DNA of 32,000 nucleotides from Candidatus Scalindua sp. (GTDB lineage Bacteria; Planctomycetota; Brocadiia; Brocadiales; Scalinduaceae), in assembly GCA_031316235.1 (NCBI GenBank), contig JALDRA010000001.1:390001-422000 (forward strand), read 5' to 3'. Both the position numbers and the translations under genes were made by a program. The notes below the pieces were generated by a model, which did not search any database, had not been told where the DNA came from, and was given only the letters and a program-made list of their open reading frames with translations. This document shows, piece after piece, positions 2,240 to 27,404 of the stretch. Numbering within the stretch: position 1 is the stretch's first letter; every line of letters begins with the position of its first letter.

Positions 2240-4741
2240 TCAATTATCGATTGTTTCCTTTATCTCTTTTATTTCCTGTTTCAATGACACATTTTCCTCA
2301 TGAAGCTCCTTGACTGCTTCAACCAAAATGCCTACGAGTTTCCCATATGAGACAGACTTCATACCCTCTTTATCCCGGGAAACAGCCTCAGGAATAACAC
2401 TCTCCACTTCCTGTGCAATTACACCGATTTGCCTGCCTTCACCCATGCTCTTGTCAATCCACCTGAAATTCACACCACGAATATTTTCAACCTTCTCAAG
2501 TGCATTATCTATGGTGTGGATATCTTCCTTCAGCCTGACGTCAGACGGTGATACATTGTCTCCCCGTATAGTACCCTTTACGTCTAAATTATAGGACGGA
2601 TCCGTTCTGCCAATACCGACAAATCCGGATGGGATTATAGTCATCTTCTGACTGTTATTTACAACGAAATCTAATCTGTGATCTGTCATAGTGCCGATAA
2701 TACCTCTATCGAGCCAGCCCTCCAGATACGTTGTAGCACCTCCGGTTGTTTGTAATTGAAAATTCCCTGGTCCGCTATCACCCGTTACGATAAGATTTCC
2801 ATCATAGACGTGCAACCTGGCATCAGGACTCGCCGTCCCCAAACCAACGTTACCATCATTATAGTACGTATTAACTCCGTCAAGTAGCCACTGTGAATCC
2901 CCGGGATCTCCCTTATCACCTTTCACTCCTGGTACACCTGATATTCCCTGAACTCCCGTATCGCCTTTGTCACCCTTCGGGCCCTGTGCACCATCTGCAC
3001 CCGCTATTCCCTGAGGACCAACCGGTCCCTGTACACCGTCTGCACCCGCCGGTCCAATCAATGTTGCTGTGGTCTGCAGTGTCCCATCAGGAAACATAAT
3101 CCCATCAGTTCCAGGAGTGCCGCCCACATGGAGCTTTGCTATTGGATTCGGTACTCCAATGCCGACGTTTCCCCCAGCCGTAACTCGTAACATCTCGGCA
3201 CCATATTCCAGGGTAAAGTCATTGGTGTCTGTCTCTTCCAGGTCCCAGAATACACCATTTCCCCCTGTGTCACCCAGGCGAACGGTATCAAGCAGGCTTA
3301 TTCCTTTCACATGAAGTTTTTCAAGAGGGCTCGTTGTGCCAATACCAATATTGCCATTCTTAAGCACTGTTATCGCATTCCGGCGATTCGTACCATCAGT
3401 ACCATTGCCGATTACAAACAACGGATCAGTTTTTACCCACGATAACGGGTCTCCGGAAACAACATTATATTGACCGACAACCAATGAGGCCAGGGACTGT
3501 GCGGTGGTCTGTAATCCCATGGCAGTTGAATATTTTCCGCTTGCAGTTGTGCCGTTTCCCATGGCGGTTGATGTATTCCCGCTGGCAGTTGCCCATCTTC
3601 CCATTGCAGTGGAAGACCATCCGTTTGCAGTTGTACCTCCTCCCATAGCGGTTGAAAAGCGTCCGCTTGCTGTTGTTCTCCATCCCGTTGCAGCTGAATA
3701 ATTTCCAACCTGTGCCGAATCCCATTGATTACCATTTACATACCCAGCCCTGAAGGCAGCTTTTTTCGGGTACCATATCAGTCTTGCACCTTCTCCTGTT
3801 GTGTTAAGATCAGTACCGGAACCAAAAGTTCCCCTTGCAAGTATACCGCCATCATTATCGAGTGAGAGTTTGAATTGAGGTCTGGACGTGCCTATTCCCA
3901 CATTACCTTGAAGGTAATACGTGTTTAACCCGTCAAGCAGCCAGTGCGAATCACCTTCAGGCCCTCGTGGGCCTCTGGCACCGGTATTACCTGCCGGCCC
4001 TTGTGCCCCTGGAATTCCCTTCGGTCCGCGAAACCCTACTGCACCATCTGCACCTGCCGGCCCTGCCACCCCTTGAGGCCCCGGAATACCCTGTGGACCT
4101 ATAGGCCCTGCAACAGTCGCCGATGTCTGCAGCGTACCGTCAGGAAACATGATGCCGTCTGTTCCCGGATTACCGCCGATGTGCAGTCTGTGAAGCGGAT
4201 CAGGGACATTAATCCCGACATTTCCATTCTCCTTTATTGTAAGATTCTCACCGCTGTCATCATCAATAAACCTCAGAGCGCTCTTGTCTCTCGTAATCGT
4301 AGTAAATTCCCTGTAGGGGACTAGTGCTGATTGAGGAAGGCTGTTACCTTCGAGCCGGATAGCTGTTGACACCTGATCCTGGTTATAGATATGGAGGTCT
4401 ACCTCGGGATTAGTTGTCCCGATCCCGGTACCAGGAGTTGTTTCCGGCTCCATCTGATTTTGAGCAATGGATTCATCTTTGTATCCGGATGCTGCTGTTG
4501 TCTCCAGACTGTCATTGAGAGATTTTTCTTCATACCTCGTTATAATCTCCTTCATGGCTTTCATTTCCACTTTCAACTCTTCGATTTGTTTCTCTTGTGT
4601 TTTGATTGCCTCCACGAGAGTAGCAACATCAGTGCCCGGGACATCTTCACCGGAAACACCTGTCTTTACCGGAGAAAAACATACACTTACTAACAAGAGA
4701 AATGCTGCTATAACTATAATTCTTCCTGATCTTGATACCAT
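2240..4741 (-). CDS. secreted collagen-repeat fibre protein with YadA-head-like repeats and a C-terminal tail-fibre intramolecular chaperone (peptidase S74) domain
   Basis: N-terminal signal peptide (IIVIAAFLLLVSVCFS), then a coiled-coil segment. Two G-X-Y collagen tracts lie at nt 3953-4108 and ~2896-3054. A run of S/T-A-x-G repeats (STAMGxxTTASG) resembles YadA head/Hep_Hag. The C-terminus SDVRLKEDI...GVNFRW...IGVIAQEVESVIPEAV...VSYGKLVGILVEAVKEL matches the endosialidase-chaperone/S74 pattern. Confidence 0.85.
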   Translation of the reverse strand: MVSRSGRIIVIAAFLLLVSVCFSPVKTGVSGEDVPGTDVATLVEAIKTQEKQIEELKVEMKAMKEIITRYEEKSLNDSLETTAASGYKDESIAQNQMEPETTPGTGIGTTNPEVDLHIYNQDQVSTAIRLEGNSLPQSALVPYREFTTITRDKSALRFIDDDSGENLTIKENGNVGINVPDPLHRLHIGGNPGTDGIMFPDGTLQTSATVAGPIGPQGIPGPQGVAGPAGADGAVGFRGPKGIPGAQGPAGNTGARGPRGPEGDSHWLLDGLNTYYLQGNVGIGTSRPQFKLSLDNDGGILARGTFGSGTDLNTTGEGARLIWYPKKAAFRAGYVNGNQWDSAQVGNYSAATGWRTTASGRFSTAMGGGTTANGWSSTAMGRWATASGNTSTAMGNGTTASGKYSTAMGLQTTAQSLASLVVGQYNVVSGDPLSWVKTDPLFVIGNGTDGTNRRNAITVLKNGNIGIGTTSPLEKLHVKGISLLDTVRLGDTGGNGVFWDLEETDTNDFTLEYGAEMLRVTAGGNVGIGVPNPIAKLHVGGTPGTDGIMFPDGTLQTTATLIGPAGADGVQGPVGPQGIAGADGAQGPKGDKGDTGVQGISGVPGVKGDKGDPGDSQWLLDGVNTYYNDGNVGLGTASPDARLHVYDGNLIVTGDSGPGNFQLQTTGGATTYLEGWLDRGIIGTMTDHRLDFVVNNSQKMTIIPSGFVGIGRTDPSYNLDVKGTIRGDNVSPSDVRLKEDIHTIDNALEKVENIRGVNFRWIDKSMGEGRQIGVIAQEVESVIPEAVSRDKEGMKSVSYGKLVGILVEAVKELHEENVSLKQEIKEIKETIDN

Positions 4742-8584: not shown

Positions 8585-10849
8585 TCAACGAACAGCTCGG
8601 ACACAGTTTTTGAAGCTTGAGTTGTAGTAACTGCAACCGCCATTGACAAAATCAACACCCCAGACAAAAGATGCATTATATGGATCTGAAGTCCAGATTC
8701 TTTCCTGAAGAGCACCAAACTCCTCTTCTATATAAAGAAAAGGATCCCCAGGAGTATCAACTTTCTTTTTACTCTGCTCCAGTAAGGTTAGTGCTTCCAG
8801 AAGGGTCGGCAAACGCCAATCGCTGTACCCGGCAAATTGCTCACCATTCAACTGTACAACATAAGCCTCGGCATCTCTAAACGTGATCTGAGAAGAGCCT
8901 GCCTGCTGCCACATTAAACCTGTAGCCTGATCATTGACCACCTTGTCGCTGTTGATTGTTTTTACTTCAAATTTGTTATCAGTATAGGTTCGTGGTCTCC
9001 CATTATCCAAAACCTTATTAACTTCTTCGTAAGTCAAATACGTCTCTGATTTGTCCGGCAAAGATTCTAATTCCAGTTGCGGCTGAACAGCCGCAGCTTT
9101 GAGGACCTCCACCTCATCTATCTCTGTTATGCTTTTTTCTTTTTTTTTTTGTGTAAGTACTTTTGGCTCCTGTAAATCTATTTCAGCCTTACCGCTATTG
9201 AGAGAGACCTCGGTATAAAGTTTCGTCAATCTGTCAGTTTTATCGAGAAGTGTGTCACAGAATTTAACCATCAATGGTACATTAAATTTTGTACCATTAC
9301 TCTCAATACATTCAGTTGCCGCTTTGTACACTTTTCTCCATTCCATTTTAGTTATAGAATTTATAAGGCCCTTGATCTCTGATGTGTTTTCAGAAACTCC
9401 TTCAAGTGCCAACATGGTACTTTCAAATTCAACTGCAGCATCAAGCATTGAATCTATTCGATACTCTTTATCGACACCCATGCTCGCGGCAAGATAATCA
9501 CGTAACAATTTCTGAGAGTACATCCGCTGCCGCCCTGCAATAGTAATAATTTCTGATAGGGGCACAGGTGACAGGGATTCCATATATGATGTCATCATCT
9601 CATTTTCTTCAAGCAGTTTATCGCTTGCATCCAGGACATCGGAAAACCTATCCTGTACCGGTGCTTGCGAAAGCACCTTTTCGAGCTGACTCCAGTTCGC
9701 CTGGGCCGAGTTAACCGTTTTCGTTAATTCATTACTGTCTGCAACAGGCGTATACATCAATAGTTCATTATAGATTTCACTTATTGTTCTTTTCGCATCG
9801 ATCAGCTCTTTTTCAGCAAGCTTCTTTTTCACGGCAGGATAATCTTTCAGGACTTGAACACCATATAAATTTGTCATCAGCATTGATAACATCCTGGTTT
9901 TTCCACTAAGGTTTAATGCATCATTTATATCACGAATCATTACTGCTTTTGTCTGTCCGGGCTCAACACTTGTTACATCTGTCTGAGACGTTCCCGCAGG
10001 TCCTGCCAACGCACTCCATAAAATGTTGTTTTCCAGAGAAACGGCTGCAGGTTCCTCACCGGTGAATCTCCGTTCTTCAACCGTGGTTCTCTCTTCTCCG
10101 GGAAGGGTTATTTCAAGAAGTGGATTAAACTTGTTTCTGTAAATTTCTGCATGGTGGTATGCTTCCCCGTACATTTCCTTTGCGCTATACAGATCTTCAA
10201 GTACTTTATGTACTGCAACAAATTCAGGATTAATCTCAAGTGCTTTTTTTAGAAACGCTTCAGCATTTTCAAACTCACCCTTGTTTTTATATATAAGTCC
10301 TTTTAAGTAATGAATGTTTGATGTATCCTGATTTTTCTCTATTGCCTTTTGCCACAATAATACAGCATCATCCGGTTTTCCTGTTTTTACGTAAGCATTA
10401 CCCAGATAATAATATATTTCCATTCTTTCAGGGTTTATTGCAATGGCATTTTCAAACAGGAGGATCGCTTTGTCATATTCCTTACTCTTACTTAAGATTC
10501 TACCCTGCCCGATAAGAGGTTCCTCTGATGAAGGATTAAGTCCGGATGCCTTTCTGTATGCATCTAAAGCATCCTTAAGCATGAATTTTTCTTCATATAA
10601 GTATCCCAGATTATAATACGCTTCATAATTGTCTGGATTGGTCATCAGGAATGCTTCGATTTTTCCTGTTGCATCGTCTTCACTTATGCCCTTTTGAGTA
10701 GCGGTAATATTTTCATCGGCAACTGAAGTCAATCGCTTCTGTTTTGCTGGATCAGTAGCAGATTCTTTATTGCCGCATCCCTGCATACAGGAGATAAGAA
10801 ATAGAAGTAGTAAAGAATAATAGATTATATGTCTGTCTATCTGAGTCAT
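8585..10849 (-). CDS. lipoprotein with TPR repeats, an internal PilJ/NarX-type four-helix-bundle sensor-like domain and a C-terminal DUF1566 (Lcl C-terminal-like) domain
   Basis: Lipobox LISC. TPR repeats span aa ~70-240. Aa ~305-548 carry the twin motifs SGKTRMLSM and IAGRQRMYSQKL typical of the PilJ N-terminal domain and are paralogous to the 11874-12710 product. The C-terminus GLMWQQ...YSDWRLPTLLEA...WTSD...VRAVR fits DUF1566. Confidence 0.8.
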   Translation of the reverse strand: MTQIDRHIIYYSLLLLFLISCMQGCGNKESATDPAKQKRLTSVADENITATQKGISEDDATGKIEAFLMTNPDNYEAYYNLGYLYEEKFMLKDALDAYRKASGLNPSSEEPLIGQGRILSKSKEYDKAILLFENAIAINPERMEIYYYLGNAYVKTGKPDDAVLLWQKAIEKNQDTSNIHYLKGLIYKNKGEFENAEAFLKKALEINPEFVAVHKVLEDLYSAKEMYGEAYHHAEIYRNKFNPLLEITLPGEERTTVEERRFTGEEPAAVSLENNILWSALAGPAGTSQTDVTSVEPGQTKAVMIRDINDALNLSGKTRMLSMLMTNLYGVQVLKDYPAVKKKLAEKELIDAKRTISEIYNELLMYTPVADSNELTKTVNSAQANWSQLEKVLSQAPVQDRFSDVLDASDKLLEENEMMTSYMESLSPVPLSEIITIAGRQRMYSQKLLRDYLAASMGVDKEYRIDSMLDAAVEFESTMLALEGVSENTSEIKGLINSITKMEWRKVYKAATECIESNGTKFNVPLMVKFCDTLLDKTDRLTKLYTEVSLNSGKAEIDLQEPKVLTQKKKEKSITEIDEVEVLKAAAVQPQLELESLPDKSETYLTYEEVNKVLDNGRPRTYTDNKFEVKTINSDKVVNDQATGLMWQQAGSSQITFRDAEAYVVQLNGEQFAGYSDWRLPTLLEALTLLEQSKKKVDTPGDPFLYIEEEFGALQERIWTSDPYNASFVWGVDFVNGGCSYYNSSFKNCVRAVR

Positions 10850-18750: not shown

Positions 18751-19004
18751 TATACGAAGGGGGTCTATAGTGGAGGATCTTAAAACCATTATGAACAGCT
18801 TTAGTGTGAGAAAAAGCAATCACTATAAATCGCCTATTCGTTAGCCCTTTTTTTTACTGGTTTTTTGTGACCAATTTGTGACTAAGGTTTTGTCGCACAT
18901 TAAAACACATTACGATATCTTGCAGTATTTGGATTGGTGGTGAATAGGGCGTTAACCTTCTTATTAACAGGAAGTTAGATGCAAATATCGGCAGGACAAA
19001 GAAG

Positions 19005-19051
19005 TACGCCCGAGAGGATTCGAACCTCTGGCCTACGGTTTAGGAAACCGT
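19005..19051. repeat. att-type direct repeat (displaced copy of the tRNA-Arg 3' 47 nt)
   Basis: tacgcccgagaggattcgaacctctggcctacggtttaggaaaccgt is identical to 26607-26653. The flanks diverge on both sides (19004 g vs 26606 a; 19052 t vs 26654 c). Confidence 0.9.
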
Positions 19052-19085
19052 TTCGGTCTTTTATTAGCAACTACTTACGGCATGT

Positions 19086-19104
19086 TTTTGACCGTATTTT
19101 GACC
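19086..19104 (+). promoter_or_regulatory. two TTTTGACC direct repeats (candidate integrase arm-type sites, left arm)
   Basis: ttttgacc at 19086-19093 and 19097-19104, 11 bp apart, 35-53 bp inside the left att repeat. The same octamer recurs near the right end. Confidence 0.4.
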
Positions 19105-19121
19105 AAAAAAGCCGCACAAAT

Positions 19122-20117
19122 TCAGCACACTTTGACATTCTGGATAATCCTTTTAAGATCCTCAGTGTAAACTTTCGTATAAATATCAAGAGAAGTAATC
19201 GCGCTCTTGTGTCCCAATAACGCCTGAATATGTTTCGGGTGAGTGTTATTACTTGCCAAAATTGTAGCGAACGTATGCCGCAAACTATGCAGATTAAGCC
19301 CGTCAGGATCAATACCCGCCTTGGCAATACATTCCTTAAAGCGCCTTAGTAAATTGTTTTTGTACTGAGTCCCGATTTTGGTCTTGAATACGTACCCTTT
19401 CCGGTCCACCATCTTCTTTAACTCAACCATCAAGCCGGGTGATATGGGTATCTCTCGCACTCCTGCATTGGTCTTTGATTGCCTTACCGATATCATTCCC
19501 TTATCAAGATCCACGTCACCCCATGTCAAGCTAATAAGCTCTGAAAGCCTTACGCCTGTGGATAGAAACGTCAACCAAATAATTTTGTATTTCCCTGAAT
19601 GATTCAACAAGCTGGTGATCTCTTCATGAGTCAATACCCGCCTTGCTGGCCTTCTCTCTTTGAAATATTTAATATCTGCAATGGGATCAAATGTGATCAC
19701 CTTTGTTTGGATACCATAGGCAATTACACGCTTGAATAATCCTATTGTACGGTTCAGGATCTTGGCCGATTTTCCTGCCTGAATCCGTGAGTTAATATAC
19801 CCATTCAATAAGCTTCTCAGGGTGGCCAATTGAACGCCCTGCATTTGTTCAAAGGCATTGTTAAGGATTGTTTCTGAGTCGTGATATGTTTTGGGAAGTA
19901 TGTGCGGTTTGATCTCTTGTAAGAAATCATTTTTCAGCCTGTCAAGCGGATAACCTTCTTGAACGATACCGAACGCCGCAAGCTGATTGCTTGAAACCAG
20001 CCTGTTATAGATCTTTTGCGCTGTGTTCCTGTTTGAACTCAGCTTTTTTCGGACCCGTTTTCCGTTTACGTAGATATCAGAATACCAAGTATCTCCGATT
20101 TTGCGAATAGGTGACAT
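19122..20117 (-). CDS. int: tyrosine recombinase / phage-type integrase
   Basis: 331 aa. The N-terminus GDTWYSDIYVNGKRVRKKL looks like an arm-binding domain. The catalytic-domain pattern is present: GVRLSEL (Arg), HSLRHTFAT (His-x-x-Arg), LLGH, LDIYTKVY (Tyr). Confidence 0.9.
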   Translation of the reverse strand: MSPIRKIGDTWYSDIYVNGKRVRKKLSSNRNTAQKIYNRLVSSNQLAAFGIVQEGYPLDRLKNDFLQEIKPHILPKTYHDSETILNNAFEQMQGVQLATLRSLLNGYINSRIQAGKSAKILNRTIGLFKRVIAYGIQTKVITFDPIADIKYFKERRPARRVLTHEEITSLLNHSGKYKIIWLTFLSTGVRLSELISLTWGDVDLDKGMISVRQSKTNAGVREIPISPGLMVELKKMVDRKGYVFKTKIGTQYKNNLLRRFKECIAKAGIDPDGLNLHSLRHTFATILASNNTHPKHIQALLGHKSAITSLDIYTKVYTEDLKRIIQNVKVC

Positions 20118-20126
20118 TGAGCCAGA

Positions 20127-20154
20127 ATTATACCAGAAATAAAACCCTGTTCAA
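20127..20154 (-). promoter_or_regulatory. candidate integrase promoter giving a near-leaderless transcript
   Basis: On the minus strand: TTGAAC, 16 nt, TATAAT. The -10 ends 9 nt before the int ATG and there is no SD. Confidence 0.4.
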
Positions 20155-20223
20155 GGCCTGTTTTATCTTGAATTTAACAGAAATATAGGTATAATTTATA
20201 CCTGATTACACCAGTAACAACTT

Positions 20224-20278
20224 GGCCTTGAGATTGTTTTTCAATATCCTCCATATATGGAAGAATGATCTCAAGGCC
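20224..20278 (-). terminator. long hairpin between the protease gene and int (terminator or recognition site)
   Basis: 11-bp perfect arms ggccttgagat / atctcaaggcc with a nested tccatatatgga palindrome, 13 nt past the protease stop. No U-tract follows. Confidence 0.3.
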
Positions 20279-20291
20279 GCACCTACAAAAC

Positions 20292-21632
20292 TTACTCTTT
20301 TTGATCTTCCGACCTTCTCTTGTTTTCAAATATCCTTACCCGGCCTGCGGCAACCGCTTCACTATACGCCTTAAAACTCTCAAAGCTTGAAAACTCTTCC
20401 TGTAATTCCTTTGATGCATCCCATTTTGCCTTTAACGCTTCAGGTGTTACCGATTGTCCCGGTTCCGCTTTGGCACTGTCTACTCGCCCGGTAATTCTCA
20501 CTTGCCCGGCGGCAACCGCTTCACTATACGCCTTGTAGCTTCCAAAACTTGAAAACTCTTTCTGAAGATCTGGCGAAGAGTCCCATTTTGCCTGATATGA
20601 GTCTTTGACTTCTGTTACCTCTGTTGCTTCCTGTTTTGTTTCCATGCTTCCCCCTTTCAAATTAGGAATTTTAAAGCCTACCCTCTTTTGCTCTGCTGCA
20701 AGTATTTGTGTCGCCGCTTCCCCGGTACTGGTGACACCATCGGCTTTTAATTTCTTGACCAAGGCTTCATGCCCGGGTAATGATAATTTTTCGATACCTT
20801 TCACCCGTGCGACCTCTGCAACCTCTGCAATGGTCCCTTTCATGCTCTTGATACCATCAACCAGCCCGGCTTTAATGCCCTGACTACCCAGAAATAACTG
20901 GCCGTCCGCCATGTTGGCTAAAACTTCCTCTACGGATACCCCTCTAAACTTTGCTACGTCCCCGGTAAACGCATTGTAAATATGCGCAACCTGACCTTGT
21001 AGCTCTTCGAGGCCTTCATCCGTTAACGGCGCGTAATCCGAAACAATACGTTTCTTGGTCCCGGCTGTCACTTCTGTGGTCTTGATACCGATTTTCTTTT
21101 CAAGCTCTGAGATATCAACGTGAGTTGCTATAACGCCAATTGACCCGGTCGTCACTGCCTCGTCGGTTATATACACCTTGCTTGCTGCGGACCCTATCCA
21201 ATAAGCCGCACTTGTAGCCATGGCCGACGAAATCGCAAAGACTGGTTTAACCTTGCTACCTGAATGAACCAGTTTTGAAAATTCCTGAACCCCGAACACG
21301 CTTCCGCCGGGTGAGTCAATATCGAGGACGATTGCTTTAACCGTGCTGTCTTTGAGAAGCGCGTTAAACTCTTGAGTCAACACGTCAAGCCCGATACCGC
21401 CGAACAGATAAGACCAAATGTCTGACTTAGGCTGAATGATCCCTTCAATGGGCAAAATAGCGACGTCACCATCAACACGGTACAGATTACCCTTCCTTTT
21501 AACCGGGTTATCATAATAAGCCTTCACCGCTTCATGATCAACATTCTGGACAGCCGCCTTTATCTTTTGTAGCTCCTGCCGGGTAATTGCCCATAGATTT
21601 GACAATTTGTCAATTTTTGTATTGTGAGTCAT
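20292..21632 (-). CDS. S49-family (SppA/ClpP-fold) prohead maturation protease with a duplicated C-terminal scaffold-like module
   Basis: VLDIDSPGGSV, SSAMATSAAYWIGSAA and GSIGV motifs of peptidase S49, as in lambda gpC-type head proteases. The C-terminal ~110 aa hold two copies of AKWDxSxxLQxEFSSFxSxKAYSEAVAAGxVRI. SD GGAGGAG. Confidence 0.8.
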   Translation of the reverse strand: MTHNTKIDKLSNLWAITRQELQKIKAAVQNVDHEAVKAYYDNPVKRKGNLYRVDGDVAILPIEGIIQPKSDIWSYLFGGIGLDVLTQEFNALLKDSTVKAIVLDIDSPGGSVFGVQEFSKLVHSGSKVKPVFAISSAMATSAAYWIGSAASKVYITDEAVTTGSIGVIATHVDISELEKKIGIKTTEVTAGTKKRIVSDYAPLTDEGLEELQGQVAHIYNAFTGDVAKFRGVSVEEVLANMADGQLFLGSQGIKAGLVDGIKSMKGTIAEVAEVARVKGIEKLSLPGHEALVKKLKADGVTSTGEAATQILAAEQKRVGFKIPNLKGGSMETKQEATEVTEVKDSYQAKWDSSPDLQKEFSSFGSYKAYSEAVAAGQVRITGRVDSAKAEPGQSVTPEALKAKWDASKELQEEFSSFESFKAYSEAVAAGRVRIFENKRRSEDQKE

Positions 21633-21665
21633 TTGTCTTGCTCCTCCAATAAGTAAAATATAAAA

Positions 21666-22067
21666 TTAAACTCTCGATAATGCTTCTTGCAAGATACCCG
21701 TCAAAATCTTGTGAATTTCGCTTTCCGTCAAGATATGATTCAGGCCTTGCATTTTCTCAAGGTAGATATCTGGAACCTTGAAAATTTCTTCCTTGATACG
21801 TTTGCTCAGGATCTCGTCTTTGGTATGCTCTGCTATGTTTGCTTTGTACTCTGTCAATGCGGTCCGTGCCTTGCTGAATGTGTCCTGACTTTTGACCGCT
21901 TTCCTTGCATCAAGCCATTGTCGGGCTGTATCCAAATCAAAAACGATCCTGCCTCTTCCGGTCCGGCTGAATGGCATTCCGTTAAATCTCCAAGATATTA
22001 CCGCTTGCGTTGACACGTTTAGCATTTTGGCCAATTCGGCCTGACTTACCCTCTCACTTGATCTCAC
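21666..22067 (-). CDS. MerR-superfamily winged-HTH protein, Nu1-type small terminase-like or AlpA/excisionase-like
   Basis: VSQAELAKMLNVSTQAVISWRFNGMPFSRTGRGRIVFDLDTARQWL parallels lambda Nu1 (QLADIFGASIRTIQNWQEQGMPVLRGGGKGNEVLYDSAAVIKWY), but the same fold occurs in AlpA/Xis. 133 aa with a helical C-terminal half. GTG start with AAGGAGG. Confidence 0.5.
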   Translation of the reverse strand: MRSSERVSQAELAKMLNVSTQAVISWRFNGMPFSRTGRGRIVFDLDTARQWLDARKAVKSQDTFSKARTALTEYKANIAEHTKDEILSKRIKEEIFKVPDIYLEKMQGLNHILTESEIHKILTGILQEALSRV

Positions 22068-22205
22068 TTTCTATAACCTCCTTTCTTACCTATACTTAGA
22101 AATATTTTCTATCACTAGCGAAAAGCCGCGGTCTCCTGTTACCCTTACCTCGACGGCCTCTTAAAGTACCTTGTGTCTTTACATGGCACACATTTACAAA
22201 GCTTA

Positions 22206-22793
22206 CTATCCCTTCTCGCTCAGTATATCCTTGAGAATTGCATCGGTTTTATTCCTTCGGTCCTCATTCGTTAAAATTCTCAAAGCCTCATATTGATTGC
22301 TGATAACCGCCACGCCTGATGGGTTCACGCCCGGATTAGAAACCGTCAAGCAGAGTAGGTATCTCGATAACAAATCCCCTGCTTTCTCTTGGACCTCTTC
22401 GAGTATCCGGTCTCTCTCTTTACCAAACAGCTTCATTAATGCGGTTTGCTTCGCCGCTCTTGTCTGCTGTAGCGCGTTGCCCGCATTGGCAACCGCAATA
22501 CGTAGATTCTCAACAACAACCGCAAAATCAGATACCAGCGCCCTTGCTCTGTCTGTGTCAGCTTTGGCCTTTTGAAGATCCTTGACCGTGATAAGATCCC
22601 GCGATTTTTCATTCTTCAAGCAAACCTCAAGGTTTTGCTGTGAGTTCTCTAAGTCAATCCCTGCCTGAATCAATCTCAGATTCATTTTCTCTGCCTGTGA
22701 AACCAAATAACTTTCTTTTTTCTCTAATTCTCGAAATGTGTCAGCCGTGCTCATTTCTTTTGCTATCTCTTCTGTCTCAGTGATTGTTACCAT
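22206..22793 (-). CDS. hypothetical coiled-coil protein
   Basis: 195 aa counted from the ATG preceded by GGGAGGG (MVTITETEE...). Heptad-rich and alanine/glutamine-rich helical sequence; no motif recognised. Confidence 0.6.
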   Translation of the reverse strand: MVTITETEEIAKEMSTADTFRELEKKESYLVSQAEKMNLRLIQAGIDLENSQQNLEVCLKNEKSRDLITVKDLQKAKADTDRARALVSDFAVVVENLRIAVANAGNALQQTRAAKQTALMKLFGKERDRILEEVQEKAGDLLSRYLLCLTVSNPGVNPSGVAVISNQYEALRILTNEDRRNKTDAILKDILSEKG

Positions 22794-22922
22794 TTGCAAA
22801 CCCTCCCGTATAAAGCTACAAAAATACGCGCCCGGCACACTGCCAGAACGCTTCCAAAAAACCTTGACAATATTACTTGTATAATACAACAATTGCATTA
22901 ACTACGTTTCATACAGTTAACT

Positions 22923-23042
22923 TCAAAAATCATGCTTCATTGACCAATACACGCTGGCCATTTTTTTGGATTTTTGAGCCGTTGATATATAAGGACTTAC
23001 AACAAGCAAAATCAAGTTAACTGTATGAATGAGAACCCGCAT
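22923..23042 (-). CDS. possible 39-aa membrane peptide
   Basis: MRVLIHTVNLILLVVSPYISTAQKSKKMASVYWSMKHDF. Its ATG lies immediately after the TAA of the upstream gene (cATAAAATG). It has one hydrophobic helix; no other support. Confidence 0.2.
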   Translation of the reverse strand: MRVLIHTVNLILLVVSPYISTAQKSKKMASVYWSMKHDF

Positions 23043-23043
23043 T

Positions 23044-23412
23044 TTATGCCGCTTTACTCTTTCTATGGTTTTCACGGTCCGTTTTGCGTCTTCGAGCCTT
23101 CCTGCACCTGATGCAAAATCTTTCTCGTTTTGATAACTCAGCACCGCATGAACAAACCCGGACCTTTTCTTTCCTGATTGATAAGTCAATGTCTTGATAC
23201 TGCTTCATGACCTGATCATAACACCCGATAACATTCGCAATCGGCAATACGGCCTTCACAAAATACTCGCAAGGTCTGCTTGATAGGATTCTGCATTTCC
23301 CTTGTTCCCGGAACCCGACGCCGAAAGCATCAACGCCGATACATTCACCGCCGACCAGACAAGCGCATTCTTGTCTAATAAATTCCCATAAGGTAGTTTT
23401 GTTTCTTATCAC
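23044..23412 (-). CDS. cysteine-rich VLP-motif protein with a C-terminal zinc-ribbon-like CxxC...CxxC and basic tail
   Basis: CACLVGGECIG...GKCRILSSRPCEYFVKAVLPIA fits the Cys_rich_VLP pattern (C..C...C.....C.YF...VLP) known from mobile elements. Followed by CSCGAEL...CIRCRKARRRK. GTG start with AAGGAGG at 5-nt spacing. Confidence 0.65.
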   Translation of the reverse strand: MIRNKTTLWEFIRQECACLVGGECIGVDAFGVGFREQGKCRILSSRPCEYFVKAVLPIANVIGCYDQVMKQYQDIDLSIRKEKVRVCSCGAELSKRERFCIRCRKARRRKTDRENHRKSKAA

Positions 23413-23468
23413 TGCAACCTCCTTTCAATACTCTTTCCGCACCTCGTCGGAAAACATTTTGCCATGCT

Positions 23469-24374
23469 TTACGTCCTCCCCTGATTAAGTACAATTTTTC
23501 CTTTTTTAATATCTGACCTTATGAAATTTCCCACGGCTGCCGCATGGTCCTTGTACTTTTTCCCATGTGCCCGCATGTAGCCGTCAAGATCCTCGATAGC
23601 ACTAACAACATTATCCGCACCGTATTTCCTGACAAGTGATTGATAAGCATTCGACGAAATATAAACAAGCTCTGCCCTACGCCTTTTTACGTACCCGGAT
23701 AAAAATTCGCCCGGATCTCCTCCTTTTTCCAAAACCGCCGCCGTTTTTTTTAAAAGCGATTGACAATCTTTAAACCCAATTTTCTGATTAACGCTTTTCA
23801 ACTTACCTAAAAAATCTAACCAAGTTTTTTCGGTTAGGTTTTTAGGGAGAGAGATTTTTTCCAACCGCGCGGTTTTTTCGCGCGCGGTTTTTATTTCTAC
23901 TTCTTTAAATTTCTTTTTACTTCTTTTTACTTCTTTCTTTGTGGTGTTTTGCTGGTGTTTTGCTGGTGTTTTGTTGGTGTTTTGTTGGTGTTTTGTTGGT
24001 GTTGTGTAGTTCTCATATTCTTGGTATGCCCCGTATTTGCATACAGTTACGATAGTAAATTTGTTGGTGCCGTTTTTGGAAATAGCTTTATATTTCACTA
24101 ATCTTTTTATAGATTCGTAAAACGTGTTAGGGTTGAGTTTTAAATCTCTCGCGGCTTCAAATCTACCATAAACAAATTGCCCGGTTTTTAACTCATGCCC
24201 CCTGTGCGAAATGGCTTCCGTTTTGTAGTTAGCACGAAACAAACACCATAGAAAAACTTTAACGTCAACGGCATTATCCCATATCCTTTTATCCTGCAAA
24301 ACCCTTCCAACAAGGACGAAACCGCCGGGAATCACCGGCACCTTTACTGCCCCGCCTTCAATCTCTGTCGACAT
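23469..24374 (-). CDS. putative replication initiator / replisome organiser (winged-helix N-terminal domain)
   Basis: The N-terminal ~110 aa (VKVFLWCLFRANY...TGQFVYGRFEAARDLKLNPNTFYESIKRLVKYKAI) resemble phage/plasmid replication-protein wHTH domains. The central low-complexity linker is encoded by 11-bp iterons. The start overlaps the stop of the upstream ORF (TAATG). Confidence 0.55.
   Translation of the reverse strand: MSTEIEGGAVKVPVIPGGFVLVGRVLQDKRIWDNAVDVKVFLWCLFRANYKTEAISHRGHELKTGQFVYGRFEAARDLKLNPNTFYESIKRLVKYKAISKNGTNKFTIVTVCKYGAYQEYENYTTPTKHQQNTNKTPAKHQQNTTKKEVKRSKKKFKEVEIKTAREKTARLEKISLPKNLTEKTWLDFLGKLKSVNQKIGFKDCQSLLKKTAAVLEKGGDPGEFLSGYVKRRRAELVYISSNAYQSLVRKYGADNVVSAIEDLDGYMRAHGKKYKDHAAAVGNFIRSDIKKGKIVLNQGRT
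23942..24003. repeat. 5.6 tandem copies of an 11-bp unit TGGTGTTTTGY (iteron-like) inside the rep gene
   Basis: tggtgttttgc x2, tggtgttttgt x3, tggtgtt. The 11-bp period makes the peptide repeat every 33 bp (TPTKHQQNTNK / TPAKHQQNTTK). Confidence 0.85.
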
Positions 24375-24799
24375 TATGCCACCCCCTTTGATTTTGGCTT
24401 CTTACGTCTAGGCCTCGCTCCTTTGGCATTAATTTTCACAATCCTGTTGCACACTGGAAACAATGACGATAGCTCTTCAAGTGAAAATTCTTTCCAAATC
24501 TCTTCAAAAGTATAGTTGTCGACCAAACCCTTGAGGGTGCCAATCTCAAGGACTCTTTTTTTCTTGGTAGGCATTTCACGCACGCTAGTCACGTCTACTA
24601 CTTTGCCGCGCCTATTGCGCATTGTATAGAATTCAACATCGTACCGAACCTCATAGACTGTAGGGTTTACGGTAGTGTCAAATGTTGCAAAGCCCGCCAT
24701 CAATGCCAAGTCAATAGCCTTTCTGGCTAGCTTGCGCGTAAAGTTGTTTTCTTTCGCGTACTCTTCAATAGTTACACATTTGATATTTCTGTTTTCCAC
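24374..24799 (-). CDS. hypothetical protein (basic C-terminus)
   Basis: 141-aa ORF with a GTG start, coupled to rep by a 1-nt overlap. The C-terminus GARPRRKKPKSKG is basic. No motif recognised. Confidence 0.55.
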   Translation of the reverse strand: MENRNIKCVTIEEYAKENNFTRKLARKAIDLALMAGFATFDTTVNPTVYEVRYDVEFYTMRNRRGKVVDVTSVREMPTKKKRVLEIGTLKGLVDNYTFEEIWKEFSLEELSSLFPVCNRIVKINAKGARPRRKKPKSKGVA

Positions 24800-24934
24800 T
24801 GTGGCACCCTTTCTATTTGGTTTGGTTTTTAGCCTGTCACTATTTAAAATCTATACATTGATAAATCACTAACTCAATAATGGTTATAAGCGAATAATGG
24901 CTGTTACTTTCAATTTTTAGGTACCCTCTATCCA

Positions 24935-25102
24935 TTATTGCAAACGTCTCCTTTTTTCCCTTAAAAGCTTTCTAATATTCTTAAAAGTTTTATCTTTCAT
25001 TTTCCTTGCCTCTTCAGCCGAAAACCCAAGATCTTTCGAAAATCTGTATTTTGCTCTCCTTTTAACCTTTTCCCATTCTGATATTTTTGCTTCCTGTTTC
25101 AC
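24935..25102 (-). CDS. possible 55-aa highly basic protein
   Basis: GTG start preceded by AAAGGGGA: VKQEAKISEWEKVKRRAKYRFSKDLGFSAEEARKMKDKTFKNIRKLLREKRRRLQ. Below the ORF-track length cutoff. Confidence 0.3.
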   Translation of the reverse strand: MKQEAKISEWEKVKRRAKYRFSKDLGFSAEEARKMKDKTFKNIRKLLREKRRRLQ

Positions 25103-25273
25103 GATTTTCCCCTTTGATTTTTTTAGATATTTTCGTTAGAATCAAAATATAAGGCGTAAATAGAAAAGGGCATATTGTCTCTGGTTAGATCCATAGTCAA
25201 TAGGCCTTATCTATGACGCTTTTGCGAATACCTCTCTTCACCTTCAGTTTGCCGACTCGGGTGTTGAGAGGTA

Positions 25274-25453
25274 CTATTTTCCCGCTTTGAGTCTCTGTAT
25301 TTCCTTCATTTTGCTCTCTATCAACTTTCCAGTACCTTCCCGGATCAACTCTGATATACTCGTGTTCAGGTAAAATGCCGCTTCCCGCAAGGTAGCATGC
25401 TGTGACTCTCTCAGCCTGACCATTACCGATTTATTAAAATCTGGTTTCAACAT
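25274..25453 (-). CDS. ribbon-helix-helix (CopG/Arc/MetJ-type) DNA-binding protein
   Basis: 59 aa counted from the ATG preceded by GGAGGAG. NKSVMVRLRESQHATLREAAFYLNTSISELIREG gives the beta-strand plus two helices pattern of RHH regulators. Confidence 0.65.
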   Translation of the reverse strand: MLKPDFNKSVMVRLRESQHATLREAAFYLNTSISELIREGTGKLIESKMKEIQRLKAGK

Positions 25454-25486
25454 TTCGTACTCCTCCTTCAGGTTAAAAAATTTGCA

Positions 25487-25526
25487 TAAAAAAAGCGTGC
25501 GTGTCATACATCTATGGCACACACGC
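25487..25526 (-). terminator. rho-independent terminator after the 25616-25882 gene
   Basis: On the minus strand gcgtgtgtgcca-tagatgta-tgacacgcacgc (10/12 pairs) is followed by T7. Confidence 0.55.
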
Positions 25527-25530
25527 CGTC

Positions 25531-25559
25531 AGTATACAATATGTATTATGATATGTCAA
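25531..25559 (-). promoter_or_regulatory. sigma70-type promoter for the RHH gene and downstream genes
   Basis: On the minus strand: TTGACA (25559-25554), 17-nt spacer, TATACT (25536-25531). The predicted start falls inside the upstream arm of the terminator hairpin. Confidence 0.55.
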
Positions 25560-25615
25560 GTAATATCAGTGTAGTCAAACTTTTTCTTATTCGGCTTTTT
25601 ACTATTGTCAAGTCT

Positions 25616-25882
25616 CTATTCCTTCACAAAAACCGTGTTTCCGTCTTCTCCGTAAACTAAAAATTTAAGATCCTCCATAACTTCACTACTCAATAAGCTG
25701 AGTCCTAATGCCTCGGACCCGGAAAAGTCATCTTCGTTGTTTATGATTCTCTGAAAGATCCCAATAATCCCGGCTAATTTGCAAAATGTCTCATCTGCAT
25801 TAATGTTGCGATAGTTAGTCAATTGCCCACTCTTAGCACTTGACACCTTTTCTTTCTCCTTCTCAACTGTCTTTTTGTTCAT
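25616..25882 (-). CDS. hypothetical protein
   Basis: 88-aa ORF with AAAGGA upstream and a terminator downstream. No motif recognised. Confidence 0.5.
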   Translation of the reverse strand: MNKKTVEKEKEKVSSAKSGQLTNYRNINADETFCKLAGIIGIFQRIINNEDDFSGSEALGLSLLSSEVMEDLKFLVYGEDGNTVFVKE

Positions 25883-25924
25883 TGCCTTTTATCCTTTCAA
25901 AAAGTTATAAAATTTTAACAATCA

Positions 25925-26227
25925 TCAAGTAACCTTCAATTTCGATGCCAATTTCGTCACCTTCTCAACTTCATCCGCTCTGGTAGTTATTGCCCTTTGT
26001 CGCGGGTATGTCTTGCCGTCTGCACCCTTTGACGTGTGCGATTCGCACACCTGATTATTGTTAATTAGATTCTTTCTTGCTAACGAAACCGTGTTATTGC
26101 TAACCCCTAACCCCTTAGAAATCTGCCTATCTGAAATTTCCGGGGTTTCTCTCAACTGGTCCCTGACAAGTTCCTGCTTTTGTTTCTGGTTAAGATGCCG
26201 CCTTGCAAGGTTTTCTCTTGCCGTCAA
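25925..26227 (-). CDS. HTH DNA-binding protein (ParB/KorB-like HTH region)
   Basis: ENLARRHLNQKQKQELVRDQL...SDRQISKGLGVSNNTVSLARKNL resembles the helix plus HTH segment of ParB-type proteins. TTG start; an in-frame TAG 12 codons upstream excludes a longer N-terminus. Confidence 0.5.
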   Translation of the reverse strand: MTARENLARRHLNQKQKQELVRDQLRETPEISDRQISKGLGVSNNTVSLARKNLINNNQVCESHTSKGADGKTYPRQRAITTRADEVEKVTKLASKLKVT

Positions 26228-26276
26228 AACCTTTTGAGGTGATGCATTGCATCGCCTGCCCTACAAAGCTATAAAA

Positions 26277-26293
26277 TTAATGATTTTCATTAA
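26277..26293. promoter_or_regulatory. perfect inverted repeat TTAATGA-ttt-TCATTAA (candidate operator)
   Basis: 7-bp arms with a 3-bp spacer, ~50 bp upstream of the first element gene (start 26227), within an AT-rich promoter-like stretch. Confidence 0.3.
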
Positions 26294-26389
26294 AACAATC
26301 GGTTGTAGCGCCGGGAACTTTAGCGGAAAATTTTGGGGATTATTTTGCAATCAATGTCAGCTTAGGGTTATGGCTTTTGAAGTGAGATT

Positions 26390-26494
26390 TTTTGACCAGA
26401 AATACCCGGCAAAACTACGGCCTGCGGTTTGAGATTTTTTGACCACTGTTTGACCATGTATAATTTCTATACACAATTTGACCGATTTTTGACC
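26390..26494 (+). promoter_or_regulatory. five (T)TTTGACC direct repeats (candidate integrase arm-type sites, right arm)
   Basis: Copies at 26390-26397, 26437-26444, 26449-26455, 26477-26483 and 26487-26494, all in the same orientation as the two at 19086-19104. gagattttttgacca occurs twice. Confidence 0.45.
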
Positions 26495-26606
26495 ATAAAA
26501 AGGTAGTTTTATGTAACAAAATGGAACAGATTGCGCTATGAGAAGGGTAAAAAAACGGCTTATTTAGGGGGGAAATTTTGTTGTAAGTCTTTTAGGGTGA
26601 AAGAGA

Positions 26607-26680
26607 TACGCCCGAGAGGATTCGAACCTCTGGCCTACGGTTTAGGAAACCGTCGCTCTATCCTTCTGAGCTACGGGCGT
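26607..26680 (-). tRNA. tRNA-Arg (anticodon CCU)
   Basis: The reverse complement folds as a 74-nt cloverleaf: acgcccg-ta-gctc-agaaggata-gagc-g-acggt-TTCCTAA-accgt-aggcc-agagg-ttcgaat-cctct-cgggcgt-a. CCA is not encoded. Its 3' 47 nt form the right att repeat. Confidence 0.9.
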
Positions 26681-27404
26681 ATGGAGCTTTTAATGGCATA
26701 TATTCAGGTATAACGTTTGTAAAAGCATAACTTAAATCCTCTGCACACCCTCAAGCTCAATAATGCAAACTAATACAAATCTGTGGGCAGAATATGGGCA
26801 ATAAAAGTCAGGAAAAAAATACTCTCAGTTTCCATATATTCGTAATACTTCGAATGGTATTAGAATGGAACATAAAGTGAATTCATCGATACAATCGCCT
26901 ATACAATAAAGTGATTACTCGATACTGACATGTATACGTATTTCTGGTAAGTTTATCAAAGTTCGCCTGTATGGGCAAGAAATTTTATACTATCCGTTTT
27001 TTTACCTCATTTACGTCATTACTATAAAATGTAATTTAGTTTACATCATATTTTATTATGTTGTTTACCATAATCTGCTTTCTGTTCAAGTTCGCTCACT
27101 CCTTTCACCTGGACTCGCAGTCGCGAGTCACTCTCTCGAATTCTCCCCTTCAAAATACCTAACCCTTTTTTTGAAAGCATACACAATTGTCAACAGTAAC
27201 TGACACTATGTATAACCAGAAACAACCTCCAATTTCTGTCATAAAAGAAAAAATTAAACTTTCAACTGCCATAGTTTTAAAGCTTTACTTCTTTTCTAGA
27301 TGAAAATTTATTTCCTTGGTATAAAATTTGAGATAGCATAACCAACAGTTGCACTTGTTTAAGAAAGTTATTTTAAACACAATCATTTTTAGGTAGATAC
27401 AAAC

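Follow-up and report, generated by a model that had tools for sequence, protein, structure and literature searches.

Among the phage satellites described to date, two groups come closest to the locus reported here. The cos-type phage-inducible chromosomal islands (PICIs) found in Enterobacteria, such as EcCICFT073 ('PICI-A', cos-rpp), are integrated islands that go with a lambda-like helper having a Nu1/GpA-type terminase. They carry cosQ/cosN-like DNA close to that of the helper, without a recognisable helper cosB, and directly after it a short winged helix-turn-helix (wHTH) gene, whose product Rpp has 139-154 amino acids (aa) and is thus shorter than the small terminase (TerS) (PMC9026076, PMC6739421). 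The virion-encapsidated integrative mobile elements (VEIMEs) are environmental satellites of ~5-17 kb with tyrosine integrases and replication genes and no capsid genes (PMC9618062). Here we analyse a window of 32,000 nucleotides from Candidatus Scalindua sp. (GenBank assembly GCA_031316235.1, contig JALDRA010000001.1, positions 390,001-422,000; coordinates below count from the first letter of this window), in which an element of ~7.6 kb is inserted at a tRNA-Arg(CCU) gene. We consider it likely that the element is an integrated phage satellite of its Scalindua host, dependent on a lambda-like, cos-packaging siphophage. Judged by homology, it would work most like the cos-type PICIs of Enterobacteria, and its gene content is most like that of the marine VEIMEs. 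The original prediction, made from the letters alone, had taken it for a satellite-type element parasitising a helper phage; this is supported by our results, which add a cos-like block and arm-type repeats to the case.

Like the enterobacterial islands, the element has a short wHTH gene directly behind cos-like DNA, here encoding 133 aa as against 177-189 aa for the TerS of related phages. It differs from them in that its wHTH protein is a true TerS homologue (phrog_57) with no match to the Rpp chain in the Protein Data Bank (PDB), in having neither AlpA nor a primase-helicase, with a DnaD-like initiator instead, and in its tRNA-distal integrase, its S49 protease-scaffold gene, its size and its host, a member of the Planctomycetota. 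All of its genes are co-oriented, and the contrast drawn beforehand with the divergent int/regulator layout of PICIs holds. 'Periplasmic serine protease' is the usual annotation of S49 peptidases. Proteins so named occur in one VEIME module, and some modules have a TerS closest to that of co-occurring phages (PMC9618062). However, VEIMEs are defined by concatemers in virus particles, whereas the present element is compared with them by gene content, and the VEIME study argues against capsid remodelling and describes no cos site, scaffold truncation or Planctomycetota host (PMC9618062).

Other satellites are more distant. CpmAB of the Staphylococcus aureus pathogenicity islands and Sid of P4 are satellite proteins that mimic or replace a scaffold and contact the helper capsid protein (summarised in PMC10690885), and they resemble our case by analogy only: no relation of sequence or fold exists, and the candidate for this part here is a protease-scaffold gene of the helper itself, altered by an internal deletion and a doubled capsid-binding motif. 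Nothing in the element matched the P4-like set sid/psu/delta/alpha (primase)/epsilon in PHROG or Pfam. Capsid-forming PICIs and the MiniFlayer and MulchRoom satellites likewise have phage-derived genes for a head-maturation protease and TerS, but they also encode a major capsid protein, a portal, head-tail connectors and often the large terminase (TerL), none of which was detected here. The phage-inducible chromosomal minimalist islands of Vibrionaceae are also very small marine satellites of minimal gene content; they differ in lying next to fis with three core excision and replication genes and no morphogenesis genes, whereas our element sits in a tRNA gene and has TerS, S49 and cos-like sequences (PMC10803314). 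Our literature search returned no satellite from anammox bacteria or other Planctomycetota, and the SatelliteFinder survey makes no mention of Planctomycetota. New relative to what is known would be a family of cos-type satellites that combines a TerS homologue with an edited helper protease-scaffold gene.

Three features of the element trace by homology to one phage lineage: the cos-like block, the shortened TerS homologue and a lambda gpC-like S49 protein with an altered tail (Table 1). The S49 protein has 3832 relatives, and what we say of genomic context covers those in which it could be read. Every such relative with a full-length scaffold sits in a complete lambda-like head module, in the order TerS (phrog_57; weak Pfam DUF1441), TerL (GpA), gpW-like protein, portal (Phage_portal_2), S49, a 253-260-aa protein and the major head protein (phrog_1005 / Mu-like gpT). 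The module was seen in L003 and L004 (both from a Scalindua metagenome-assembled genome, MAG), L007 (a prophage in a 2.9-Mb contig), L008, L010 and L040-L045; its presence in a Scalindua MAG implies that lambda-like cos phages infect Scalindua. Many TerL-bearing contigs of the lineage are 40-44 kb long. An S49 alignment scan of viral contigs gave 16 loci, and the 14 with open reading frames (ORFs) listed resemble ordinary phage head modules by ORF size, L016 and L017 excepted. Single-protein scans of viral contigs with the Rep, TerS-like and S49 proteins found nothing.

At the nucleotide level, the element and the phage loci share only the S49 coding region and a non-coding block (22171-22094) that lies between the coiled-coil and TerS-like genes and ends ~27 bp before the start codon of the latter. 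Its identity to the opening 50 nt of phage contig L010 is 88% over 50 nt, and with intergenic DNA in prophages L003 and L007 it reaches 77% over 79 nt. Its 30-nt core, GGAGACCGCGGCTTTTCGCTAGTGATAGAA, has one mismatch in L010, three in L007 and four in L003 and L004, and is absent elsewhere in the window and in the other loci compared. The block also matches the mature left end of lambda (bp 13-43) at 27 of 32 positions, with an alignment score of 35 as against 15.7 ± 2.1 (maximum 27) over 500 shuffles. L010 starts at the first base of the block, and L040, L041 and L042 do so at the homologous column, their other ends differing; these three derive from another phage, with a TerL that is 74% identical, and from three further samples. 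These contigs start 19 nt before a TTT(T)CG motif, and the mature end of lambda lies 18 nt before the same motif. We read the contig starts as physical cohesive left ends; the block is thus very probably a cos site, containing the equivalent of cosN, and the conserved AGGTACTTTA ~20-27 nt upstream is a possible cosQ equivalent. The element's left cohesive end is predicted at 22143, reading the minus strand. The starts of L010 and L040-L042 would also give the cos position for an uncultured phage lineage. This cis site is 88-97% identical to that of L010, as against 24-58% for the proteins shared with these phages; a cis site that is better conserved than the proteins is what a satellite needs if it is to be cut by the TerL of its helper.

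The wHTH protein encoded directly after the block had been described as Nu1/AlpA-like. The terminase part of that description stands, since the protein is a TerS homologue by its phrog_57 match (Pfam Phage_Nu1 reaches just 0.011); the AlpA part does not. It is 24-29% identical to the TerS proteins adjacent to GpA-type TerL in L003, L007, L008 and L010, and an hhalign comparison of three element proteins with four phage TerS gave a probability of 99.45% (E 4.6e-22). The wHTH, an FSKA(K/R)..YKA..AE motif and the C-terminal end are shared with the phage proteins, from which it differs in lacking ~45 residues, the gaps falling behind the wHTH and within the central helix. Similarity to lambda Nu1 is weak and confined to the wHTH (56.6% probability), and no TerL gene is adjacent. 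Comparison with the PDB gave weak matches to DNA-binding domains of lambda TerS and none to the Rpp chain of 6HN7, and a word search for relatives found only the protein itself.

The coiled-coil protein encoded on the other side of the block is all-helical, and a search of 1.84 billion representative proteins turned up just 12 relatives. It matched no family in Pfam, PHROG or PADLOC, and a fold search with its model returned generic coiled-coil matches only, all at E of 0.001 or above. The ORF that stands before TerS in the phages was considered as its kin and proved unrelated on comparison.

After the TerS-like gene comes the S49 gene, whose product had been called a head-maturation-type protease with a scaffold-like tail. 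Profile matches agree, the tail being shortened; by sequence it resembles a head protease/scaffold of the lambda gpC type. Both this and the neighbouring product thus belong to phage families, S49 head-maturation protease and small terminase respectively. In alignment, S141 and K194 fall at the positions of the Ser/Lys dyad in Bacillus subtilis SppA (3RST), and neither varies among 76 homologues. In the AlphaFold2 (AF2) model (predicted local distance difference test score, pLDDT, 83), residues 50-262 form a protease domain predicted with confidence, and Foldseek matches it to phage S49 head proteases. On sequence and model, then, the protease looks functional. Among 50,697 records of cultured phages the best match is 33% identical.

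It is in the tail that the element's protein departs from those of phages. An alignment shows that a ~80-aa segment between the protease domain and the 'SLPGHEALV...' helix pair, present in all phage-borne proteins, is missing from the element's protein and from nine others (P0002, P0003, P0004, P0014, P0017, P0023, P0035, P0101 and P0103). The C-terminus consists of two tandem copies of KWDxSxxLQxEFSSFxSxKAYSEAVAAGxVRI, hereafter the C-motif, encoded by DNA repeats at 20332-20431 and 20494-20593. Phage proteins with this type of tail have a single C-terminal copy (a few, such as P0016, have another tail), and two copies recur in P0002, P0003, P0101 and P0103. AF2 models each copy as a small unit of three helices at a pLDDT near 95; the helical units span 340-374 and 397-428, and disordered linkers separate them. 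If lambda gpC/Nu3 and other internal scaffolds are a guide, the capsid is likely to be bound by the extreme C-terminus. The second copy is closest to that of L010 (29 of 36 positions, 81%; protease domain 58% identical), the phage that also has the closest cos. In the element, neither a portal nor a capsid gene adjoins the S49 gene. We also considered that the two motifs might serve two helpers, copy 1 resembling L040 and copy 2 L010, and rejected this: the copies match each other at 26 of 34 positions and copy 1 matches any phage at 22-23 of 34, so that plain tandem duplication is the better explanation.

The closest S49 relatives, P0002 (MDR4498446.1) and P0003 (MDR4497394.1), are 48-49% identical to the element's protein and have the same missing segment and the same duplicated C-motif. 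They are neighbouring accessions on 245-kb and 312-kb contigs of one Scalindua MAG, and it may be that this one other Scalindua genome carries two such elements. A metagenome scan made to place these relatives returned only a phage contig that was among the loci already compared.

Of the nine other proteins that lack the segment, the two with usable context (L031 and L032) are encoded in small integrase elements. L031, a contig of 8.7 kb, has in order a 376-aa ORF, RHH_3, a PrimPol/D5 primase-helicase, 182-aa and 153-aa ORFs, S49, a 93-aa ORF, HTH_17, an integrase and tRNA-Pro(GGG). In L032 the order is RHH_3, a DnaG-type zinc-ribbon protein, an AAA_25 helicase, small ORFs, two 184-aa ORFs, S49, a 69-aa ORF, HTH_17, an integrase and chromosomal genes. 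Neither has a portal or capsid gene. The coiled-coil protein of our element is 26% identical to the 182-aa protein of L031 (1.6e-9, tblastn), and in both relatives a coiled-coil gene lies just upstream of the TerS-like gene. The TerS-like protein is 34% identical to the 153-aa protein of L031 (3e-10), and its orthologues in L031 and L032 match phrog_57 at 1.4e-23 and 1.2e-30. In L031, an ORF of 93 aa that stands by itself after S49 matches the second C-motif (45%, 6e-10). Related elements exist elsewhere, L031 adjoining tRNA-Pro and L032 a tRNA-Arg fragment: directly after the integrase of L032 comes a 48-nt tRNA-Arg 3' fragment (9482-9529), 96% identical to the attachment (att) core of our element, with no intact tRNA nearby, and this order indicates the same target and the same integrase-distal layout. 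As a separate observation, L032 lies in a different organism with different flanking genes, and its integrase is ~30% identical over 214 aa to that of our element despite the shared att. What is conserved across these elements is the unit of coiled-coil, TerS-like and truncated S49 genes, with an extra C-motif in several members, while the replication modules differ. Compared in this way, the elements appear to have interchangeable replication modules, which argues for a maintained family and not for random prophage decay.

In a neighbour-joining tree of S49 protease domains, computed without support values, the proteins lacking the segment fall in at least five separate places, including a distant P0101/P0103 clade with the duplicated motif. 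This scatter is only a hint of repeated capture. Satellites of lambda-like phages may have repeatedly taken the protease-scaffold gene of their helpers and given it the same edit, by deleting ~80 residues of the scaffold core and adding a second capsid-binding C-motif, either fused or as a separate ORF; we regard so general a pattern as rather unlikely. If true, satellites would have in the edited protease-scaffold a means of redirecting or sabotaging capsid assembly that has not been described before, working alongside a shortened TerS and a mimicked cos.

Four generic features of a satellite are present: a recombinase with att sites, replication genes, the lack of virion genes, and a packaging signal and proteins that match those of a helper. 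From these homologies, the element probably spreads inside capsids made by the lambda-like phages that occur in Scalindua and related samples. Excision through the integrase and its arm sites would be triggered when a phage of the L010/L003 type replicates in the cell as helper. The element would replicate from its own iteron origin and may use the primase-helicase of the helper, a recruitment proposed because its initiator is homologous to a protein of the phage. The satellite TerS homologue would bind beside the satellite cos and recruit the helper TerL, either directly or as an Rpp-like mixed oligomer with the helper TerS; TerL would nick the conserved cosN, and concatemers of the 7,602-bp unit would be packaged into helper capsids. 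The truncated protease-scaffold could join the helper procapsid through its capsid-binding C-motif, and might either shrink the procapsid or sabotage helper assembly. Redirection of capsid size by the truncated scaffold is the least certain step, proposed by analogy, and we find it somewhat doubtful. The sizes, which are arithmetic and not evidence, would allow five units (38 kb) to fill a normal head and two (15 kb) to fit roughly a T=4 head.

Several observations could also be accounted for otherwise. The block might be no cos site at all, and instead a copy of the helper's late promoter or activator site that switches on the TerS-S49 operon, packaging being left to another signal. The activation of P4 genes by P2 Ogr offers a model, the block does stand directly upstream of the operon, and in prophages it precedes the late-gene region by 1.5-2 kb. 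Yet this leaves aside that the contigs of two phages from four samples start at the exact homologous nucleotide with other ends that differ, nearly the lambda distance from TTT(T)CG (19 versus 18 nt) and followed by 32 nt of which 27 match lambda, and we think a promoter distinctly improbable. A defective prophage is a further candidate: a lambda-like Scalindua prophage may have lost TerL, portal, capsid and tail by internal deletions, so that TerS, S49, int and rep are immobile debris. Deletion of TerL, gpW and portal would indeed leave a TerS-like gene followed by S49, and Rep, TerS, S49 and cos all come from that phage lineage. However, the ORFs are intact and tightly spaced, the arm-type repeats have been kept, the changes in S49 and TerS are in-frame internal deletions and not frameshifts, and conservation is far higher in the cos block than in the proteins. 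The same reduced module, moreover, recurs in L031 and L032 at 26-46% protein identity with other replication and integrase genes, pointing to long-term maintenance. Nor is the locus one end of a larger decayed prophage, for the att repeats are perfect and housekeeping genes follow on both sides. Decay therefore seems to us a very improbable origin.

If the truncated TerS and protease-scaffold were only decoys that poison the packaging and head assembly of lambda-like phages, the element could be an integrative defence island that is never transduced. Dominant-negative assembly proteins are a plausible means of interference, known satellites also block their helpers (PMC9026076, PMC9618062), and no resident helper was found in the genome by the TerL search described below. 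A defence island has no need, however, of a cosN/cosQ-like site placed exactly before the TerS gene, or of an origin and initiator of its own, and the element proteins had no meaningful match among PADLOC families; we give this explanation very little credence. Movement by conjugation, with the phage-like genes as incidental cargo of an integrative mobilizable element, would find a trace in the NikA-like ribbon-helix-helix (RHH) match of the 82-aa protein, a very weak one (0.04). It is scarcely credible, given that the element has no relaxase, coupling protein, type IV secretion system (T4SS) or oriT-like feature and that its phage-derived genes form a module conserved across elements.

Some results weigh against a helper-dependent satellite. 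The cos block and the TerS-like start codon are so close together that a cosB would hardly fit between them, and in the phages a stretch of 1.5-2 kb with two ORFs separates the block from TerS downstream. Profile searches found no AlpA or Xis (HTH_17) excisionase gene in this element, whereas L031 and L032 have HTH_17 genes. With the TerL of L010 as query, no match of at least 49% identity came from the 4.15-Mb contig that bears the element. The Logan contig L002, identical to the element, and the apt-carrying L033-L036 are uninformative on excision, all of them ending inside the att repeat because of the k=31 assembly graph.

Much of the oceans' fixed nitrogen is removed by anammox bacteria such as Scalindua, none of which can be grown in pure culture. 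To our knowledge, almost no mobile genetic elements or genetic tools have been described for them. A satellite with defined att, origin and cos sites and a candidate helper lineage would be among the first, and the element might constitute a natural 7.6-kb vehicle that could be packaged and delivered by phage particles. Its Rpp-like cos/TerS arrangement, together with the edited protease-scaffold, also leads to a testable hypothesis on how internal scaffolds set capsid size.

As to integration, a repeat search, ARAGORN and Rfam confirmed the predicted perfect 47-bp direct repeats that bracket ~7.6 kb and equal the 3' end of the tRNA-Arg(CCU) gene. A longer direct repeat (18998-19051 / 26600-26653, spacing 7602) has both of its mismatches within the first 7 nt. 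The flanks hold the housekeeping genes metK, apt, rpsA, cmk and purD, which are distributed over both sides. The tyrosine integrase call was borne out by Pfam and PHROG profiles, and the translation shows HxxR...H...Y motifs. Its gene does stand at the tRNA-distal end, as had been remarked, although this layout is not unique, being found in L032 too. The sequence GGTCAAAA occurs on the P-arm side at 26390, 26437 and 26487, all on the minus strand, and on the distal side at 19086 and 19097 in the same orientation. The window contains six copies as against 1.9 expected, a number that none of 100 shuffles reached, and we infer that the repeats flanking the att core are integrase arm-type sites of a complex attP. 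Contig L002 was considered as a circular assembly and rejected, as its ends fall within the att repeat. The 174-nt gap between the S49 and integrase genes contains a 24-nt imperfect inverted repeat (20224-20278, 83% complementary) with a promoter-like site (20154-20127) just downstream, pointing to expression of int apart from the long operon.

Between the repeats, every long ORF lies on the minus strand, and an independent gene call on L002 lists 11, in agreement with the ~11 co-oriented ORFs counted originally. Pfam and PHROG libraries were scanned with ORFs of at least 82 aa, shorter called ORFs lying outside these scans; within that scope no capsid, portal, large terminase, tail, lysis, relaxase or T4SS gene was matched, again as predicted. 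The element seems, by homology, to have its own replication module. The internal iterons proposed for the replication initiator are real: Tandem Repeats Finder placed 6.5 copies of an 11-bp iteron at 95% match (23938-24007) inside the rep gene, adjoined by A+T-rich 10-bp repeats (23894-23936), and together they form a putative origin within the initiator gene. The initiator is 32% identical to a 216-aa phrog_2514 protein encoded upstream of a Toprim-DnaB gene in phages L003 and L004. The Cys-rich VLP assignment has a sub-threshold Pfam match (22.7 bits, cut-off 27) and no PHROG match, and the RHH and HTH regulators have weak profile matches only; RHH_3 genes occupy the equivalent place in L031 and L032.

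Table 1 Features of the integrated element, listed in order of position in the window
Feature	Position	Strand	Evidence
tRNA-distal att core copy, perfect 47-bp duplicate	19005-19051	minus	direct repeat
Two GGTCAAAA repeats between integrase stop codon and distal core, putative P' arm sites	19086-19104	minus	
Tyrosine integrase, 331 aa	19122-20117	minus	PF00589 1e-26; phrog_1 2.5e-60
S49 head-maturation protease fused to shortened scaffold-like tail, 446 aa	20292-21632	minus	PF01343 2e-34; phrog_53 'head maturation protease' 5e-72
Shortened TerS homologue, 133 aa, N-terminal wHTH	21666-22067	minus	phrog_57 2.9e-12
cos-like block (cosQ-like + cosN-like)	22094-22171	minus	blastn to phage loci
All-helical coiled-coil protein, 195 aa	22206-22793	minus	AF2 single-sequence model a helical hairpin
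Cys-rich protein, 122 aa	23044-23412	minus	PF14194 Cys_rich_VLP 1e-4
Replication initiator / DnaD-like helicase loader, 301 aa	23469-24374	minus	phrog_2514 6e-19
141-aa protein, stop overlaps rep start	24374-24799	minus	no family match, PADLOC included
Early/regulatory region	24935-26227	minus	four ORFs, weak matches only
55-aa ORF	24935-25102	minus	
RHH-like protein, 82 aa, start probably at 25453	25274-25522	minus	RHH-type 0.04; phrog_876 6.5e-4
88-aa ORF	25616-25882	minus	
HTH protein, 100 aa	25925-26227	minus	HTH_24 0.0037; phrog_17439 1.6e-12
GGTCAAA(A) repeat cluster beside core, putative integrase arm-type sites (attP P arm)	26383-26496	minus	repeat search
Intact tRNA-Arg(CCU)	26605-26681	minus	ARAGORN; Rfam RF00005, 71 bits, 26607-26680
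tRNA-proximal att core copy, equal to tRNA 3' 47 nt	26607-26653	minus	direct repeat

The best promoter-like site of the element is at 25559-25531, within the early region. There, a 36-bp tandem repeat (25049-25124; 2.1 copies, 80% match) lies over the beginning of the 55-aa ORF and the region upstream of it, and could, from its position, be operator-like. Further along, the gap of ~250 nt between the Cys-rich and coiled-coil genes holds a perfect 16-nt inverted repeat (22908-22923 / 23014-23029) with arms 90 nt apart, followed by a terminator-like hairpin at 22847-22826; the inverted repeat could mark a regulatory boundary between the replication and hijack modules.

Two further S49 contexts are also worth recording. 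On the IMG/VR contigs L016 and L017, a 448-aa S49 protein (34% identical) is preceded by ORFs of 253-321 aa and not by a ~530-aa portal, which, judged from ORF sizes, might be another non-canonical context. L039, the context of P0103 in a high-GC organism, has a coiled-coil ORF after its S49 gene and a 76-aa partial second copy of the S49 catalytic region (2472-2702) ~1 kb downstream, which could be a rearrangement or an assembly artefact; none of its neighbours is diagnostic.

Outside the element, on the minus strand at 2240-4741 and directly beside tRNA-Met (1999-2075), the window encodes a protein of 833 aa that combines repeats of the collagen triple-helix and YadA-head types with a Peptidase_S74 domain at its C-terminus. 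Peptidase_S74 is the intramolecular chaperone of endosialidase, and a mix of domains of this kind is typical of phage tail fibres and found in bacterial surface proteins as well.

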